Made by a program: the position numbers and the translations under genes. From a virus (taxonomy: Duplodnaviria > Caudoviricetes), in the IMG/VR virus record IMGVR_UViG_3300037286_000119, positions 1 to 54,697 of that record: 54,697 nucleotides of DNA, one strand, 5' to 3'. The notes under the pieces were generated by a model, which saw only the letters and a list, made by a program, of their open reading frames with translations, was not told the origin of the DNA and made no database searches. This document shows, one piece after another, positions 8,947-47,742 of the stretch; the first letter of the stretch is position 1; each line of letters begins with the position of its first letter.

Positions 8947-9306
8947 ATGAAAAAGGCAATCATTTTATTTTTGATATTCCCGGGGTTGCTTTGGGCTGGT
9001 CACCTTCACCCCGAAAAATGGTATCAGGATAAATGGTGTGCTGAAAATGGCGGGCGTGCTGAGGTGGTCTTGCAGGATCAAACCCGGTGTGATTGCATCA
9101 CGGGAATGAACGCCGTTGAGGTGGACTTTGCCCGGAAATGGTATGAGGCAATAGGACAATCTTTATATTATGCCATGCTGACCGGGAAGAGGGCGGGAAT
9201 TGTCCTGATCATTGAATCAGAGGACGATATGAAATATTGGAACCGGATGAAGGCGACCATTGAGCATTTCGGGTTGCTGGTGGATTGTTGGAGAGTAAGC
9301 CCTTAA
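8947..9306 (+). CDS. Signal-peptide-bearing protein with PD-(D/E)XK-like nuclease motifs
   Basis: N-terminal MKKAIILFLIFPGLLWA; RCDC...AVEVDF...WYEAIGQSLYY pattern resembling the restriction-endonuclease-like fold. Confidence 0.6.
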   Translation: MKKAIILFLIFPGLLWAGHLHPEKWYQDKWCAENGGRAEVVLQDQTRCDCITGMNAVEVDFARKWYEAIGQSLYYAMLTGKRAGIVLIIESEDDMKYWNRMKATIEHFGLLVDCWRVSP

Positions 9307-9572
9307 TCGCACCCACATGATGGGCTAAGTGTCCCGTCACAGCATTTCGCACGGCCTCCTTGACAGCCGCAGACTCCGCCATGATGAGAACAGCATCCCC
9401 TTTTTTCTACCACTACTTCCTTTTCAGGAATTCTATCTTCGTTTGTAGATACTGCAATTTGGGCCGGCTCTGTTTTTTGGGTCGGCTCCGTGCCTGATTT
9501 TGTGGGTTCTTGGGCAAAAGCGATATTGCAGGTAAGAAATACAAAAAAACAGAAATAATGAAAATTTTTCAT
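9303..9572 (-). CDS. Small secreted cysteine-rich protein
   Basis: Signal peptide ending AFA; C-terminus RGCCSHHGGVCGCQGGRAKCCDGTLSPSCGC. Confidence 0.75.
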   Translation of the reverse strand: MKNFHYFCFFVFLTCNIAFAQEPTKSGTEPTQKTEPAQIAVSTNEDRIPEKEVVVEKRGCCSHHGGVCGCQGGRAKCCDGTLSPSCGCD

Positions 9573-10286: not shown

Positions 10287-10679
10287 CTATCCAGCATCCT
10301 CCCTGAAATATCGTTTATAAAAATTCCCGGAAGCCGCCAGTAAAAACCGCTTGCGCTTGGACCGGTCAGCCGGGTTGTCATACACCTCATGAACGGCAAC
10401 CATTGAATTATCTATTTTCTGAATCAGCCACAAAAAAGCAAAGTCCCCAACAGAATACGAATGCCATGTATGGCCGTTTTCAAAAGCCCTTCGGATGGCC
10501 TGGGCGGTTGACACTGATTCCCCCGGCGGCATGAATTCCAGGATACTTTTTCCCATGATCGAGCTTTTATCAAATGCATCCATGCTCTCCTGTCTTGAAA
10601 AAGTGAGCCTTAAATCATGATCGAAATAATGAACATTGTAACCATAGCCGGACCTCAGCGGGATCGTGGCCGCTTCCAC
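10287..10679 (-). CDS. Stand-alone PAS-like domain (possibly fused to the repressor by -1 frameshift)
   Basis: VHYFDHDLRLTF...IMGKSILEFMPP...AIRRAFENG matches the PAS_4-type pattern; starts 2 nt after repressor stop. Confidence 0.65.
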   Translation of the reverse strand: MEAATIPLRSGYGYNVHYFDHDLRLTFSRQESMDAFDKSSIMGKSILEFMPPGESVSTAQAIRRAFENGHTWHSYSVGDFAFLWLIQKIDNSMVAVHEVYDNPADRSKRKRFLLAASGNFYKRYFREDAG

Positions 10680-10681
10680 AC

Positions 10682-11161
10682 TTATTCCCCCTGGGCCTCC
10701 GCCGGGGGTTGGGGTTCGCTTTTTAACGTTTTCACTTTGCCCTTTATTCTACCGACAATAGCATAAAACTCTTCACTATTAAGCTGTTCAAGCTCTATCA
10801 GGTTTTGGTTTACTTCATACCCAGCCACCTTGTCTTTAAATTTTAAAGTTAACGCCTGGTGGTCTTGTTCGATTTTGTCGAAGGCATATATATTATTTTC
10901 TGCCTTCTTGCCATCTATTATATTTTTCCCTAATTGTAAAAAAGATAAATAGGTGTGCCCGCATACGTTAGCTATTTTGGTTTGGCTTTCAAAAGGGATA
11001 GGCTTTTCCCTTTTTGGGTTTAAATACCGGCTGATAGTCCCCTCTTCCGTTTTTAACCCGAGGGCCAATATTTTTTGGGCTGGGTCTTTGTTTTTTTTCT
11101 TCTCAGCAACCCAACCGTTTAGAGCCGCCATAAAATATTTATATGCAAGATCTTCTTCCAT
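10682..11161 (-). CDS. CI-like repressor (HTH, no S24 peptidase domain)
   Basis: QKILALGLKTEEGTISRYLN HTH; divergent from cro-like gene. Confidence 0.75.
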   Translation of the reverse strand: MEEDLAYKYFMAALNGWVAEKKKNKDPAQKILALGLKTEEGTISRYLNPKREKPIPFESQTKIANVCGHTYLSFLQLGKNIIDGKKAENNIYAFDKIEQDHQALTLKFKDKVAGYEVNQNLIELEQLNSEEFYAIVGRIKGKVKTLKSEPQPPAEAQGE

Positions 11162-11189
11162 AATTAGAGCCCTATACCATCCAGTCTAA

Positions 11190-11258: not shown

Positions 11259-11480
11259 ATGACCATGGAACCCATAAAACAAAACATAGCGGCTCAGAAA
11301 TTAAAAATATCTGAAGGGCATCTAAGCCATATATTAGCAGGGAATAGAAATTGTGGCCCCAGGCTTGCAAAACAACTTTCCGAAATGACAAGAACTACCA
11401 TAGAAACATGGCTGTTTAATTCAAAAAAAAATATATCAACCAGACAACGGGCCTTCGACCAGCTCAAGGGGGCCGCATAA
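11259..11480 (+). CDS. Cro-like HTH protein
   Basis: QNIAAQKLKISEGHLSHILAGNR XRE HTH, 73 aa. Confidence 0.8.
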   Translation: MTMEPIKQNIAAQKLKISEGHLSHILAGNRNCGPRLAKQLSEMTRTTIETWLFNSKKNISTRQRAFDQLKGAA

Positions 11481-37089: not shown

Positions 37090-38259
37090 TTATAGCCGGT
37101 CAGGGTATCCGATGACTCTTTTTTCTTCTGGTTTGATATCTTGTTCCTTGGATTCAAAATCATCCAGTGCGTTTAATCCACGCCCGGTATTCATATCAAC
37201 TATTGATTTCAAATATACGTCTGTTGTTGAAGCTCTTTTGTGCCTCAGGATGCGCTGCATTTCAGCAACGGAATACCCGCAATTCAGGTACAGATGAGCT
37301 GCGACATGATGCCGGATGGCCTGGAAACCAAAAGACTTTATCCTCTCATCAGCCTTTCTGTTTTTATTGAGTTTCTTAATGATCCTGGGCATAATATTGT
37401 CGAGGGTGCTCTTTGACAGCCGCCCGGATTGTTCGGACGGGAAGATATATTCACTGTTTGCTATCCTGACCCTTCGGTAAAGGATTTCATAAAGGCTGTT
37501 GTTCATATCCACGCTGCCGCGGTCAATGGATCCACCCTTTCTTTTTCTCGTTGAAAACCACACTTTCCTGTTTTCAAAATCACAGTCAGAGCATTTTAGA
37601 CGCCTAAGTTCAATGGATCTGGCAAGTGTGTGATATGCCGTTCGGATCAGGTCTTTCTCAAACGCCCAGGCAGATTCTATTACAAGCTTGATATCCTCAG
37701 GTGGCGGGACATACTTTTTGAACTCTTCCTCTTCGAATTGTTCAATCGGAGTGGTTGGGTTATCTGAAATATACTTACGATTCATCATCCATGTGAAAAT
37801 GGTGTTGAATTCACGAAGAGACCTGTTGGCCTTTTTCCCGCCCTGAATTTTATACTCATTGGTAAGATATGATTCGAGAGTGACGGTTTGGATAGGGAGA
37901 TACGGATCATATCCACAAAAGCTGATAAAATTCCTGATCAGCCTGGCTTTGTATTTAAGGGTTTCCCGACCCTTGAATCTTGGTTCGGACAGGTTTAGAT
38001 ATTCGGTTGATACCTGAGAGAAGGTTAAACGGATCGTCGGGGATACCTGTGTGGAAACGATTAAGTCCCAGTGCTCCGTTTCCCACTGGGTCGCATCCCT
38101 CTTTAATGCAAACCCGGCTTTCGATTTCCGGTAAAGGAATGTGTCCGGGTCCGGTTCCGTCCAATTTTGAAGGCGTGCAAGGTGAGCTAAATGGTTGCCT
38201 TGAATTTTTTTCCGGACTGAACCGACCCACCATTTTCGTTTTTGATCGTAGGATGGCAT
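37090..38259 (-). CDS. int: Tyrosine recombinase / integrase
   Basis: TLARSIELRRL, FQAIRH, ILRH, TTDVY catalytic pattern; adjacent to att; start set at MPSYD. Confidence 0.9.
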   Translation of the reverse strand: MPSYDQKRKWWVGSVRKKIQGNHLAHLARLQNWTEPDPDTFLYRKSKAGFALKRDATQWETEHWDLIVSTQVSPTIRLTFSQVSTEYLNLSEPRFKGRETLKYKARLIRNFISFCGYDPYLPIQTVTLESYLTNEYKIQGGKKANRSLREFNTIFTWMMNRKYISDNPTTPIEQFEEEEFKKYVPPPEDIKLVIESAWAFEKDLIRTAYHTLARSIELRRLKCSDCDFENRKVWFSTRKRKGGSIDRGSVDMNNSLYEILYRRVRIANSEYIFPSEQSGRLSKSTLDNIMPRIIKKLNKNRKADERIKSFGFQAIRHHVAAHLYLNCGYSVAEMQRILRHKRASTTDVYLKSIVDMNTGRGLNALDDFESKEQDIKPEEKRVIGYPDRL

Positions 38260-38446
38260 TTTGCCTTTCCGTATAATCTCTATAGTACATATAATCCAGC
38301 ACGTGCTCGACATTAAACCTTGCTGATTTCGCAGTCCTGCCAAGCCCTATAAAGACATGTGGATACAAATGCCATGTCTTATATAATGTCTGCATAGAGC
38401 ATTTCAATACCTTAGAAAGCTCGTTTATGTCAATAAGAGCTACCAA
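37955..38446 (-). CDS. xis: Excisionase-like HTH protein (long out-of-frame overlap with int)
   Basis: LIDINELSKVLKCSMQTLYK...ARFNVEHV winged-HTH pattern immediately upstream of int. Confidence 0.6.
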   Translation of the reverse strand: MVALIDINELSKVLKCSMQTLYKTWHLYPHVFIGLGRTAKSARFNVEHVLDYMYYRDYTERQNAILRSKTKMVGRFSPEKNSRQPFSSPCTPSKLDGTGPGHIPLPEIESRVCIKEGCDPVGNGALGLNRFHTGIPDDPFNLLSGINRISKPVRTKIQGSGNP

Positions 38447-44600: not shown

Positions 44601-46055
44601 TTATTCGATCAACTCCCTGCATAAAGCTTCAGCCGTTCTGACAGGCACTGCATTTCCGATCTGCCTGACGATTTCAGTCTTGTTCCCGGCAAACTTATAA
44701 TTCGACGGGAAAGACTGAGCTGCTGCCAACTCGTGTGGTTGGAGCATTCTAAGCCGGATATCAATATCCGGATGCCGACGGAAAGTTTCAACCAGTGCAA
44801 ACCGGTCTTTTGTGGTGATGGTGTCCAGGGGTTTGTTTATGCTGCCGACAGTTCCGGTGCCGAAGTATTTAAGGATGAAAGGCTCAACCAGCATTTCTGC
44901 CGCTGTCGTTGTTATAGTCGTCAAGGGCTTTTCTATTGAGCGGACACGGAGCTGATTCTTCCTGCCGGCTTGTTGTGGTAAAATAAATGCTTCAACAAGC
45001 CCATATCTATTGCTGGTATCAACCACTGGCAAGGGACATGATACGTCATGAACTCTTTTTTCCGAGCCTTTGCCGCCATGAAACCGAGTCAGAAAAGGTT
45101 CGCAAAGATATAAATGCTGCTTTGTAGTAATGGTTGGAAGGGGACCATTGATCGACTTTGACTTGCTCCGGCCCTTATGTATTGCGATAAACGGCTCGCA
45201 AACACCAAAATGAGTTCCGTTAGCCGTGACTGTCGGTAAGGGGTCACTCAGTGAAACCCCTTTGCCGGTGCCGAAGAACTTGACAAGGAAATCTGATCCA
45301 CCGAATTTCCTAAGGCCATATTCGATCCTGGCCAGTGTTTTCTCAGCAAGGGGTTTTTTCCGGTGAAAAATAGATTGCCCTGGAAGGGACCAATCAATGA
45401 TATCTCTGGCTGGCACCCAGGGTCGGGTTGCACCGAAAAGATTTTCCCGCCCCGTTTCGGTATGTGTCGGCTCAGGCCACCGGATCTTTTTGTTACCGCG
45501 CCGGGCGATCATGAAGAGCCTATTGCGGGCTTGAGGGTCTCCATAATCGGCCGCGTTCAAAACCCGGCTCTCAACTCGGTATCCCATGGATTGCAGGGCA
45601 ATTTTGAAGGCCTGGAACGTCTGCCCACGCTTTGATTTCATCGGCAGGCCGTCAATTCCCAAGGGCCCCCATGATTCGAATTCCGGGACGTTTTCAATCA
45701 GAATACTGTCTATATAAACAGTGCTTGCCCATCTTACTATTTCCCAGGCCCCTGCCCTGGACTGATCCGAACTCGGACGTCCGCCGCGGGCCACTGAGTG
45801 GTGGGTGCATTCCGGGGAAGCCACAAGAAGATTGATCCGTCCGCCAGGGAAAAGTTTGCTTGGGTTCAGGTTGTCTATGGATGAACAAAGATGTCTGGCA
45901 GATGGATGGTTTTTACTATGGGTTTCGATTGCCACGTCCCAATGATTTATAGCCGTGAGTTGCACATTCCTTTCGGCGTTTTTTGCTGCCCGGATCAGAC
46001 CTGTACTTGTCCCGCCTGCACCGCAAAAAAGATCTGCTGCGATAAATTTTTTCAT
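44601..46055 (-). CDS. C5 DNA cytosine methyltransferase
   Basis: DLFCGAGG, SPEC, ENV, QARNR, QIGNAVP. Confidence 0.92.
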   Translation of the reverse strand: MKKFIAADLFCGAGGTSTGLIRAAKNAERNVQLTAINHWDVAIETHSKNHPSARHLCSSIDNLNPSKLFPGGRINLLVASPECTHHSVARGGRPSSDQSRAGAWEIVRWASTVYIDSILIENVPEFESWGPLGIDGLPMKSKRGQTFQAFKIALQSMGYRVESRVLNAADYGDPQARNRLFMIARRGNKKIRWPEPTHTETGRENLFGATRPWVPARDIIDWSLPGQSIFHRKKPLAEKTLARIEYGLRKFGGSDFLVKFFGTGKGVSLSDPLPTVTANGTHFGVCEPFIAIHKGRSKSKSINGPLPTITTKQHLYLCEPFLTRFHGGKGSEKRVHDVSCPLPVVDTSNRYGLVEAFILPQQAGRKNQLRVRSIEKPLTTITTTAAEMLVEPFILKYFGTGTVGSINKPLDTITTKDRFALVETFRRHPDIDIRLRMLQPHELAAAQSFPSNYKFAGNKTEIVRQIGNAVPVRTAEALCRELIE

Positions 46056-46519
46056 TTTGTGCCGCACTTCTTAATGGCCAGATAAAGCCCGGCAAATGCG
46101 GCCAGGGCGTCCCAGGTTTCTTTCTCGCAAGCCTCCATTTCATCGGGTCCCATTTTGCCGTCCAGGATGGCATCGGCCAACCGGGTTACGGCCTCGCCGG
46201 ATTCCCTGGCAATGGTCGCGCAATATTCCATCCAGGTCATATTGGTGAAGCCCTGGGACGGCTCCGGGATCGGCAGGCAGATCCGGTTGAACAACCGGTT
46301 TGCCGTATCCAGGCTGGAAAGGTCGCCACTTTTAGAAAGGATCACCAGCCAGTCCAGAAACCCAAGTTTGTTGGTGCGGCGGCCGATGCTTTTGGGATCC
46401 ACATCTGCATAGAGTGTTTGGGGGGCGATAGAAAGCAGGTCTGCAAGGGCCTTGACCCCATTCTGTTTAACGGTTGCCTGCACAATGGCCAGGACATTGA
46501 TCTGATCTTGCGTGTACAC
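46052..46519 (-). CDS. CII-like phage regulatory protein
   Basis: KALADLLSIAPQTLY...RESGEA..LADAILDG typical of P2/186-like CII family. Confidence 0.7.
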   Translation of the reverse strand: MYTQDQINVLAIVQATVKQNGVKALADLLSIAPQTLYADVDPKSIGRRTNKLGFLDWLVILSKSGDLSSLDTANRLFNRICLPIPEPSQGFTNMTWMEYCATIARESGEAVTRLADAILDGKMGPDEMEACEKETWDALAAFAGLYLAIKKCGTK

Positions 46520-46619: not shown

Positions 46620-46820
46620 TCATTTGGGCCAGATTGCTTTCACAGGCCGATTGATGACCCTGGCAATGGCCTCACGGACACGCAGGCTGACGGCGGTTCC
46701 GTTGATGACTTTGTTAATCATAGTTTTGGACACGCCGCATTCAAGGGCGATCCTCACCTGAGTGCAACCTGCTTTATCCAGGGCGTGTTTGATTTCCATG
46801 GGTGTCATTGGTTTTTCCAT
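46620..46820 (-). CDS. Cro/Ner-like HTH protein
   Basis: MTPMEIKHAL...TQVRIALECGVSKTMINKVING...IWP. Confidence 0.8.
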   Translation of the reverse strand: MEKPMTPMEIKHALDKAGCTQVRIALECGVSKTMINKVINGTAVSLRVREAIARVINRPVKAIWPK

Positions 46821-46869
46821 TTGTGACTCCTTTTTATAAAAGGTTGAGTTAAAAAATTAAGCTGTGATT

Positions 46870-46898
46870 AAATTACATATGACATTAAATTTTGTCAA
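46870..46898 (-). promoter_or_regulatory. Early lytic promoter of prophage 2
   Basis: TTGACA-17 nt-TAATTT with TG extension; flanked by repeated TTAAGCTG (46857, 46906), candidate operators. Confidence 0.65.
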
Positions 46899-46915
46899 AT
46901 AAAATTTAAGCTGAT

Positions 46916-47380
46916 ATGAAAAAAATTGATCTGAGATTAGATTTTGACAAAATAAGGTCCAGGATAGATCTTGAAAGAGAAAGCTATAAACCTGGTGCTT
47001 GGGCTGAGCTTATCGGTGTTTCACTCAATGTGGTTTCCAATATTCACGGAAAAACGAAGCAAAATCCATCCTTGGAATATATCGTTGCTGTATCAAAGGC
47101 CACCGGCAGATCAGTTGATTATTATCTCTTTGGCCATGATCAGGAATCACCCCAGCCCCAGAAGAAAGAATATTCAAAAATCACCAAGGTCATTATCGAG
47201 CACCAGGATATTGTGAAAAAATTCAAAAATCCTGAAATAGCAAAAGCAATGAATGAAAAGCTGCTTGAGATAGAGGCGGCCGATGCGGAGCTTTTTAGTA
47301 AAGCGGATGCTTATATCCAGGGCCTTCATGATTCAATAAAGACATCAAAAAAAAAGAAGACAAAACGATCTACAGGCTAA
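46916..47380 (+). CDS. CI-like repressor (HTH, no S24 peptidase domain)
   Basis: WAELIGVSLNVVSNIHG...PSLEYIVAVS...SVDYYLFG XRE HTH; divergent from cro. Confidence 0.85.
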   Translation: MKKIDLRLDFDKIRSRIDLERESYKPGAWAELIGVSLNVVSNIHGKTKQNPSLEYIVAVSKATGRSVDYYLFGHDQESPQPQKKEYSKITKVIIEHQDIVKKFKNPEIAKAMNEKLLEIEAADAELFSKADAYIQGLHDSIKTSKKKKTKRSTG

Positions 47381-47742
47381 ACTCTCGGGCCGATTTTTCA
47401 CGGAAGCCCGATCGACTGCCGGACACGGTGGCCATTGTAAATATGGCAGGGGTGATTTTAGGAGGATACAAATTGAAACTCAGACGACATGAAATCCTTT
47501 TCGATTATGTCTCATCTTCCTGCAATGTCGGTGTCCTGAAGACGGCCCTGGCCAGCGCCACGGAAATCAATCCCCAGGACGTGGAAATTGGATTCAGATA
47601 CAGCAGCCGGAACCAGCAATACTTTTGCCGGATTTTTCGGAACATCGATTGCTATTTGATCGGCGGGTGGCAGCTCCCCAAAAACCTGATCTATTTCCCC
47701 GGCCGCTCGAACGCAATCAACAACGGATCAATGGAAAACTGA
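47332..47742 (+). CDS. PAS-like domain in -1 frame of repressor (open from 47332; first start codon GTG 47428)
   Basis: LPDTVAIVNMAGVIL...LFDYV...LKTALASATE...YFCRI resembles a divergent PAS fold; no convincing RBS. Confidence 0.5.
   Translation, partial: FNKDIKKKEDKTIYRLNSRADFSRKPDRLPDTVAIVNMAGVILGGYKLKLRRHEILFDYVSSSCNVGVLKTALASATEINPQDVEIGFRYSSRNQQYFCRIFRNIDCYLIGGWQLPKNLIYFPGRSNAINNGSMEN

Follow-up and report, generated by a model that had tools for sequence, protein, structure and literature searches.

Changes of reading frame that let one gene make two isoforms are well known from dnaX, from the transposase genes of insertion sequences (IS) and from the tail chaperone genes of phages. 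In the IS1 and IS3 families a −1 frameshift at A_AAA_AAC or A_AAA_AAG gives rise to OrfAB, which shares its N-terminus with OrfA, and in dnaX the shift truncates the protein, an upstream Shine-Dalgarno (SD) sequence and a downstream hairpin being used. Slippage also occurs during transcription: runs of about nine A or T give appreciable slippage, as in Thermus dnaX, some IS elements and mxiE of Shigella, the product of the last, MxiE, being a regulator that is made in this way. Here we describe a candidate for such a recoding in a phage repressor gene of the IMG/VR virus record IMGVR_UViG_3300037286_000119 (Caudoviricetes), which was analysed as a whole (54,697 bases, in the following "the window"). 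The gene (46916–47380, + strand) encodes a predicted repressor of 154 amino acids (aa) with an N-terminal helix-turn-helix (HTH), a helical middle and a basic tail ending in KRSTG, and its 3′ end is overlapped by an open reading frame (ORF) in the −1 frame with the predicted fold of a PAS domain. From the comparison of related loci we estimate, with a probability of roughly three in four, that a repressor-PAS fusion is made beside the 154-aa form by a conserved recoding event.

The repressor gene ends with the codons ACA TCA AAA AAA AAG AAG ACA AAA CGA TCT ACA GGC TAA. As had been noted in an earlier sequence-only reading of the window, these contain a run of nine A (A9, 47347–47355, + strand) and in it the in-frame heptamer A_AAA_AAG (47350–47356, codons 146–147). 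The −1 frame opens at 47332 and runs to 47742 on the same strand, also as read before; it comprises 136 codons and TGA, overlaps the repressor ORF by the last 46 coding nucleotides (nt) of the latter, and its translation contains ...RKPDRLPDTVAIVNMAGVILGGYK...LFDYV...LKTALASATE.... The frame-0 stop codon TAA (47378–47380, + strand), which ends the short isoform, is bypassed in this frame. After a slip at the heptamer the predicted trans-frame extension (47356–47742, + strand) would have 128 codons (EDKTIYRLNS...) and then a stop, so that 147 frame-0 residues (ending ...TSKKK) plus 128 residues from the −1 frame (EDKTIYR...) add up to a predicted long isoform of 275 aa, the approximate length that had been proposed. 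Peptides specific for the −1 frame that are encoded between 47356 and 47427 include EDKTIYR, LNSR, ADFSR and LPDTVAIVNMAGVILGGYK.

Runs of A9 or T9 are rare in the window, two being observed versus a mean of 5.43 in dinucleotide shuffles. The run in the repressor gene is covered by contigs of two sequencing runs from other samples and studies, X2 (47332–47482) and X3 (47288–47438), each a single 151-base contig with a depth of 2–2.6, and with both there were zero differences and zero gaps; the length of the run is thus no quirk of one assembly. The other A9 run (11423–11431, + strand) is situated close to the 3′ end of an HTH ORF of 73 aa (11259–11480) that is cro-like. Past this run neither of the alternative frames is long, the +1 frame extending to 11544 and the −1 frame opening no earlier than 11486. 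This second run serves as an internal negative control. Apart from its remarks on a downstream stem and on a ribosome-binding site, which are dealt with below, the observation of the sequence-only reading holds.

Sequence searches with the −1 ORF of the window found no Pfam family at E ≤ 1 and nothing in PHROGs, and a word-based homology search returned only the ORF itself. An HMMER search of all proteins yielded 14 relatives of 74–122 aa (P0034–P0047; 15 matches with the query), which together with the PAS ORFs of the related loci make up an alignment of 29 rows (A6). PAS_4 is the only Pfam family matched by several of these members, namely by 4 of 29 and at best with E = 0.002, which does not reach the threshold. 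With A6, AlphaFold2 gave a model with a predicted local distance difference test score (pLDDT) of 82, in which blocks of 10 residues over residues 21–110 average 90–98 and in which two strands, helices and three further strands follow each other in the order of a PAS domain with its five-stranded antiparallel sheet. Among the matches listed by Foldseek against the PDB were an HTR-like PAS domain, TodS PAS1, HIF-2a/ARNT, phytochrome and PpsR, all of them PAS-domain proteins, the best structural match being PpsR of Rhodobacter. The fold check that the sequence-only reading had named thus came out in favour of its PAS assignment. A Cys in strand 4 is retained in most members of A6 and hints at a putative cofactor, ligand or redox input, which is only a lead; prediction of a PAS homodimer gave a score of 0.00 versus a mark of 0.42, and this is no verdict either way.

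The core of the PAS fold extends from 47413 to 47688 (+ strand, model residues 20–111), with strand 1 at 47425–47442 and strand 2 at 47452–47469. The first ATG, GTG or TTG of the −1 frame is GTG 47428, followed by ATG 47443 and TTG 47473, and all three are downstream of the start of the fold at about 47413. From the positions of the strands it follows that GTG 47428 falls on residue 2 of strand 1, ATG 47443 lies past strand 1 and TTG 47473 past strand 2. Conservation begins further upstream: the BLASTP match between the −1 ORFs of the window and of the related locus L014 (E = 8e-23) sets in at nt 47401, nine codons before the first start, and a conserved RxPxRxPD lies upstream of every start codon. 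The LPD at 47418–47426 does indeed precede GTG 47428, as the sequence-only reading had it. In several members the fold is preceded by RxPxRxPD together with an IIYKEA.Q-like linker.

For comparison, 30 repressor homologues of 142–229 aa (where named, from Desulfobacula, Desulfobacter and Desulfobacterales) were gathered, and related DNA was obtained from viral contigs (10 loci), genomes (11 loci) and metagenomes (23 loci). In addition, PAS profiles were run against six-frame translations, with 10 matches in four genomes; of 401 genomes of one order, that of Desulfobacter vibrioformis, four were matched, two of them strongly, and the PAS family is sparse among the genomes searched. Of two narrower alignments used as queries, A3 led to L002 again (as L023) and A4 to nothing. 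After de-duplication and scanning with hidden Markov models the set comprised 13 distinct repressor-PAS pairs and one partial pair (L051b), pairs being recovered by the repressor searches as well as by the six-frame PAS searches. The repressor tree is deep, with a median end branch of 0.69 substitutions per site, and the repressors with a linked PAS ORF are spread across it. Some metagenome-assembled genomes (MAGs) of Desulfobacteraceae contain several diverged modules, namely G002 (L013, L048, L050, L054, L056) with four pairs and G003 (L014, L051, L053) with two pairs and the partial one, which suggests that each of these genomes carries a large number of related prophages or elements.

In every pair the PAS ORF overlaps the 3′ end of the repressor gene, in the full pairs by 37–167 nt. 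It is in the −1 frame in 11 of the 13 pairs (window, L002, L004, L013, L014, L015, L048, L050, L051a, L054 and L058), in the +1 frame in two (L026 and L057) and in frame in none, and in the partial pair it is also in the −1 frame. Relative to a null expectation of 1/3 the binomial p of this bias is 2e-4. In 23 distinct loci with a PAS-less repressor the −1 frame ends 2–37 aa past the stop codon, except in L018, where it continues for 55 aa to the end of the contig; the +1 frame of the same loci does not exceed 54 aa apart from that of L010, which has an ordinary gene with SD sequence and ATG behind the repressor gene.

Two further properties go along with the −1 frame. One is where the start codons lie. 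No ATG, GTG or TTG is met before PAS strand 1 in 10 of the 11 −1 loci (in L002, L013 and L048 none before the end of strand 2), whereas all four PAS ORFs that are not in the −1 frame behind a repressor (L026, L057, L053 and L056) have an ATG 40–45 alignment columns before the PD motif (Fisher p = 0.0037). The family therefore uses normal starts where it is a separate gene and has none exactly where it stands in the −1 frame behind the repressor. The other property is the slippery site. An in-frame heptamer of the type X_XXY_YYZ occurs in the usable overlap (11–39 codon positions) of 10 of the 11 −1 loci; elsewhere these genes have 19 such heptamers in 1714 codon positions, and with this background the probability of finding at least 10 of 11 is 6.7e-7, relatedness being ignored. 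The heptamers are A_AAA_AAG in the window (A9), L002 (A8) and L054 (A10), A_AAA_AAA in L014 (A9), L048 (A9) and L050 (A10), C_CCA_AAA in L004 and L058, T_TTG_GGG in L015, and G_GGA_AAC or A6 in L051a. Runs of at least eight A in the last 150 nt are present in 8 of 13 PAS-linked and in 3 of 19 PAS-less repressor genes (p = 0.02). The frame relationships among homologues, which the sequence-only reading had proposed to check, are hence not random (11 of 13 in −1, a heptamer in 10 of 11, no start before the fold in 10 of 11), and the comparisons of frames, start codons and heptamers support its prediction of a short repressor and a repressor-PAS isoform.

A number of observations weigh against a fusion. 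No stimulatory element, neither a hairpin or pseudoknot 5–9 nt downstream nor an SD sequence upstream, was found. The stem that had been suggested to begin about 9 nt downstream (CGATC...GGCT/AGCC-CGATCG, also TCGGGC/GCCCGA) does not stand out from shuffled sequences, nor do relatives share it: the region 47357–47440 has a minimum free energy of −20.6 kcal/mol versus a shuffle mean of −19.3 (z = −0.40; 60 of 200 shuffles equal or better), its first paired base lies 14 nt past the heptamer, and five related loci have no shared structure (consensus −0.06 kcal/mol). The fold of the upstream 47 nt has a z of +1.14, and by eye no SD-like sequence was seen upstream of the site in the window. The downstream stem, the upstream fold and the consensus structure were thus all rejected. 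Nevertheless, a stimulator is not obligatory, since none is established for IS1, in the A_AAA_AAC_1 cluster (PMC4066793).

The survey has weak points, too. The loci are not fully independent, L004 and L058 being close relatives, four pairs coming from MAG G002 and two from G003, and in L013 no canonical heptamer was found in the overlap. The 1/3 null is generous, because ordinary coupling overlaps, of which those of 4 nt and 1 nt are common, also place the downstream gene in the −1 frame. It should be noted that such coupling requires a start codon where the two genes meet. One is present in L054 alone, namely a GTG 5 nt past the stop codon; in the PAS alignment, L054 has a GTG 5 columns before the PD motif. 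In a dual-coded block of 27 nt (SSTKRR.NG in frame 0, IIYKEA.Q in the −1 frame) the synonymous/non-synonymous counts are 13/24 versus 15/22, by which the two frames are not separated. Finally, the look-up of sequencing runs found no RNA runs that contain the region. The remaining points on this side concern start codons and in-frame fusions and are given below with the alternative that they favour.

As to how the frame is changed, ribosomal slippage and polymerase slippage give the same protein, and both routes may contribute. We tentatively favour tandem −1 ribosomal slippage on A_AAA_AAG over slippage of the polymerase, because of the efficiency of A_AA.A_AA.G and because five of the −1 relatives have no long homopolymers. 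In a study on E. coli, A_AA.A_AA.G is linked with a high −1 frameshifting efficiency and A_AA.G stands at the top of the tetramer hierarchy (PMC4066793).

A real fusion that arises chiefly through slippage of RNA polymerase, an extra A in some of the transcripts putting the PAS part in phase, we consider possible, though rather unlikely. Such slippage would explain two things at once, the overlong runs and the missing stimulator: for a heptamer alone the runs would not have to be so long (A9 in the window, L014 and L048, A10 in L050 and L054, A8 in L002), and polymerase slippage needs no stimulator, and neither structure nor SD sequence was found. It is also in line with the under-representation of AAAAAAA in the genes of E. 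coli in all frames, for which the authors of that study suggest transcriptional slippage or a high rate of indel mutations as a possible reason (PMC4066793). However, 5 of the 11 −1 loci are without an A run of eight or more (L004 and L058 with C_CCA_AAA, L015 with T_TTG_GGG, L051a with A6 or G_GGA_AAC, and L013 with none of these), so that a single mechanism for the whole family is more simply ribosomal. The two +1 loci, L026 and L057, which the deletion of one A would fuse, were considered as evidence for polymerase slippage and rejected, since in both of them an ATG lies 43 alignment columns before the PD motif.

There would be no fusion at all if the PAS ORF were a separate small gene, started at GTG 47428, at ATG 47443, at TTG 47473 or, through coupling or re-initiation, at a codon that is not canonical, with a product that acts as a second subunit together with the repressor. 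This we regard as improbable, even though it has several observations on its side. Inside the fold an AGGAGGA (47460–47466) stands 6 nt ahead of TTG 47473 and looks together with it (47460–47475, + strand) like a strong internal start, and the statement of the sequence-only reading that there is no good ribosome-binding site is thus not literally true. The public gene call has a 99-aa protein from ATG 47443. Relatives show that the PAS part exists as a separate protein, in L026 and L057 in the +1 frame with its own ATG and in L053 and L056 as stand-alone copies, and a second PAS-like ORF in the window, which is described below, has its own AGGGGG and GTG two bases past the stop codon of the upstream gene. 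Natural in-frame fusions were found neither among the 15 library matches, self included (all 74–122 aa), nor in a weak search among proteins of 252–2000 aa. To this can be added that coupled overlaps in general favour the −1 frame. A start at GTG 47428 would cost strand 1 only its first residue, and it is possible that this GTG and the TTG with its SD sequence are used as additional starts.

Against a separate gene stands that initiation at ATG 47443 or TTG 47473 removes one or both of the N-terminal strands of a confidently modelled fold. For example, the possible internal start at TTG 47473 would give a product of 89 aa without PAS strands 1 and 2, for which a single-sequence AlphaFold2 prediction was poor (pLDDT 54), a value that is not comparable with that of the alignment-based model. 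The AGGAGGA may be incidental, because its GG codons encode a turn that is conserved in part, P0034, P0045 and P0047 also having GG there. With respect to GTG 47428, no SD-like sequence is seen by eye in the 21 nt before it. Furthermore, RxPxRxPD is conserved upstream of all starts, 10 of the 11 −1 loci are without a canonical start before strand 1, and an independent start leaves the enrichment of heptamers in the overlap unexplained. Very improbable, finally, is a mutation or a switch at the level of the DNA, in which a fused ancestor was broken by an indel or an assembly error or a poly-A phase variation changes between fused and split: A runs are indel-prone, but the −1 relation is found in 11 distinct loci of differing sequence, five of them without a long A run, decay or phase variation should leave fused copies, of which there are none among the 13 pairs and the 15 library matches, the stretch has nine A in all three sequencing runs, no indel being listed (a minor variant may go unseen in contigs), and the PAS ORFs are intact and conserved.

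Returning to the fusion made by recoding, we envisage the following course. Standard decoding of 46916–47380 would give the 154-aa HTH protein, and at the A9 run a fraction of the expression would move to the −1 frame, pass TAA 47378 and continue to 47742. The 275-aa isoform would consist of the DNA-binding N-terminus of the repressor, a linker of about 20 residues and a C-terminal PAS domain, and the slip rate would set the ratio of sensor-less to PAS-bearing subunits on common operators. Through the PAS part the lysogeny switch could gain an input for a signal, be it a ligand or redox, or an additional contact with a protein, and mixed oligomers might tune the switch, which is speculative. 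A sensing role of the PAS domain is putative and, in our judgement, somewhat doubtful. That the sensing of a ligand replaces RecA cleavage, as the sequence-only reading had it, is speculation; the one observation speaking for it is that no Peptidase_S24 domain was found at E ≤ 1 when the 154-aa repressor and the −1 extension were scanned against Pfam.

Taken further, the loci might represent a widespread family of prophage repressors in the sulfate-reducing Desulfobacterota, in which a conserved frame change provides a fixed minority of PAS-bearing subunits that mix with the others on the operators, lysogeny then answering to a small molecule or to redox without RecA-dependent cleavage, and the slip rate being a hard-wired sensitivity; this wider picture we hold to be on the unlikely side. 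If the long isoform is real, temperate phages have a new way of wiring environmental input into their master switch, and a gene family that is neither of transposon nor of structural type joins the cases of programmed frameshifting in bacteria. It would then also be the case that gene callers systematically mis-annotate such loci as a repressor and a truncated ORF of 74–122 aa.

Some properties of the family should be mentioned in their own right. Many of its repressors, with or without PAS, close with a basic tail that contains a K/R-x-(N/S/T)-G-(T/S)-like motif (alignment A1), for example ...NLKNGTDG, ...RRTNGK or ...KRSTG, and in the PAS-linked loci the DNA that encodes it also encodes, in the other frame, the first part of the linker. 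In the PAS-less homologues L009 (3448–3456), L042 (A10) and L043, runs of A9–A10 were scored in the last 150 nt, that of L043 being outside the last 75 nt; behind none of the three is an alternative frame longer than 29 aa. In Lys-rich tails a long A run is therefore by itself no sign of recoding. In L056 (reverse strand, 354–1800 in reverse-complement coordinates) two tandem PAS copies with their own ATG stand behind an HTH gene, and in L053 (1399–1797) a single PAS copy with its own ATG stands behind a gene that by eye is MaoC-like.

The gene at 46916–47380 is by its position the CI-type gene of a temperate-phage immunity region, as a divergent HTH gene lies beside genes of the cro and cII early type, and its product is predicted to be the repressor. 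By sequence it matches HTH_3 (E = 0.022) and Phage_CI_repr (E = 0.099) of Pfam, both short of the Pfam cut-offs, and of PHROGs phrog_8, "transcriptional regulator" (2.4e-7), and phrog_4, "transcriptional repressor" (1.8e-4). Divergent from it is a cro-like HTH gene of 66 aa (46620–46820, − strand; Pfam HTH_3 1.6e-7, phrog_769 5.3e-9), and the second gene of this leftward early operon encodes a CII-like activator of the Phage_CP76 family (46052–46519, − strand; PF06892 6.5e-14, phrog_101 2.3e-12). Further leftward follow genes for a methyltransferase, an Ant-like protein and a primase, and rightward of the repressor locus there are a lipoprotein-like ORF, an HTH ORF and tail genes.

Between the divergent cro-like and repressor genes, the intergenic region (46821–46915) contains AAAAAATTAAGCTGTGATTAAATT-like repeats and inverted repeats, which are candidate operators and promoters. 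The repeat unit (family D1) occurs in three copies (46851, 46900 and 46920) with 71–100% identity within 46851–46943, the third copy falling inside the first codons of the repressor gene, and three pairs of inverted repeats (I1–I3) lie in or beside the region. A tyrosine integrase gene (37090–38343, − strand; PF00589, E = 1.5e-19) is located in the middle of the record between two immunity-like regions, and the record may thus consist of two adjacent elements instead of one phage.

In the other part of the window a second repressor-like gene (10682–11161, − strand, 159 aa) is distantly related to the family in its helical part (hhalign probability 91.5%, E = 8.7e-7), and behind it, in the −1 frame, lies a PAS_4-like ORF (10287–10679, − strand; Pfam E = 0.0014), so that one record has two repressor-PAS modules. 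In this second pair (10287–11185, − strand) the −1 frame is open from 10748 and overlaps the upstream gene, with A_AAG_GGC at its start. A profile comparison of the PAS family with the second PAS-like ORF by hhalign gave no similarity (probability 0.1%). Also on the − strand, an 89-aa ORF (9303–9572) has a hydrophobic N-terminus and a Cys/Gly-rich C-terminus with 10 Cys in the last 29 residues, and looks like a small secreted Cys-rich peptide.

How does this locus compare with known systems? A lysogeny repressor that is extended to a sensor domain by a change of frame was not found in the literature searched, the candidate tables of PMC4066793 and GeneTack lying outside that search; regulators and prophage genes that are candidates for frameshifting are listed both in the supplementary tables of the former and in the clusters of GeneTack. 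With the CI repressors of the lambda/LexA type and with 186 CI and P2 C the gene shares the position divergent from cro- and cII-like genes and the N-terminal HTH, and its CII-like neighbour belongs to the CP76 family of phage 186. It differs from lambda CI and LexA in that Peptidase_S24 was not found and in that the HTH matches are short of the Pfam cut-offs. An extension by PAS through frameshifting is not described for the lambda CI/LexA or the 186 CI/P2 C families in the literature searched.

PAS-containing regulators such as PpsR of Rhodobacter and VqmA-Phi of phage VP882 are encoded by single in-frame ORFs, unlike the split locus described here. VqmA-Phi is not itself the repressor, it has its PAS domain at the N-terminus and its HTH at the C-terminus, and proteins of the VqmA type bind 3,5-dimethylpyrazin-2-ol (DPO). 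Compared by architecture, not by sequence, the order is reversed here, the HTH coming first and the PAS domain last, and the two are in different frames.

Regulators that depend on a change of frame are known from other mobile elements. For example, one report describes FseA of ICEMlSymR7A as being formed from msi172 and msi171 via a +1 frameshift, and for cro of phage A2 a −1 shift in E. coli, which alters no more than 12 residues and, for the infection of the phage's own host, L. casei, was considered to be apparently irrelevant (PMC5009743). FseA, A2 cro and MxiE resemble the present case in that the full form of a regulator of a mobile element or of virulence needs a change of frame near the end of the first ORF; none of them is a repressor that maintains lysogeny and is extended by a sensor domain. 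With tau and gamma of E. coli dnaX the locus shares the heptamer A_AAA_AAG and the principle of two isoforms with a common N-terminus, but here the shift makes the protein longer, by 128 residues, and the two stimulators of dnaX were not found. Closest in logic are OrfA and OrfAB of the IS1 and IS3 families, where a short HTH product is accompanied by a long one to which a domain is added from a −1 ORF without a start codon. No hairpin was found here, and the added domain is a PAS domain instead of the catalytic domain of a transposase, appended to what is by position the CI repressor of a temperate phage.

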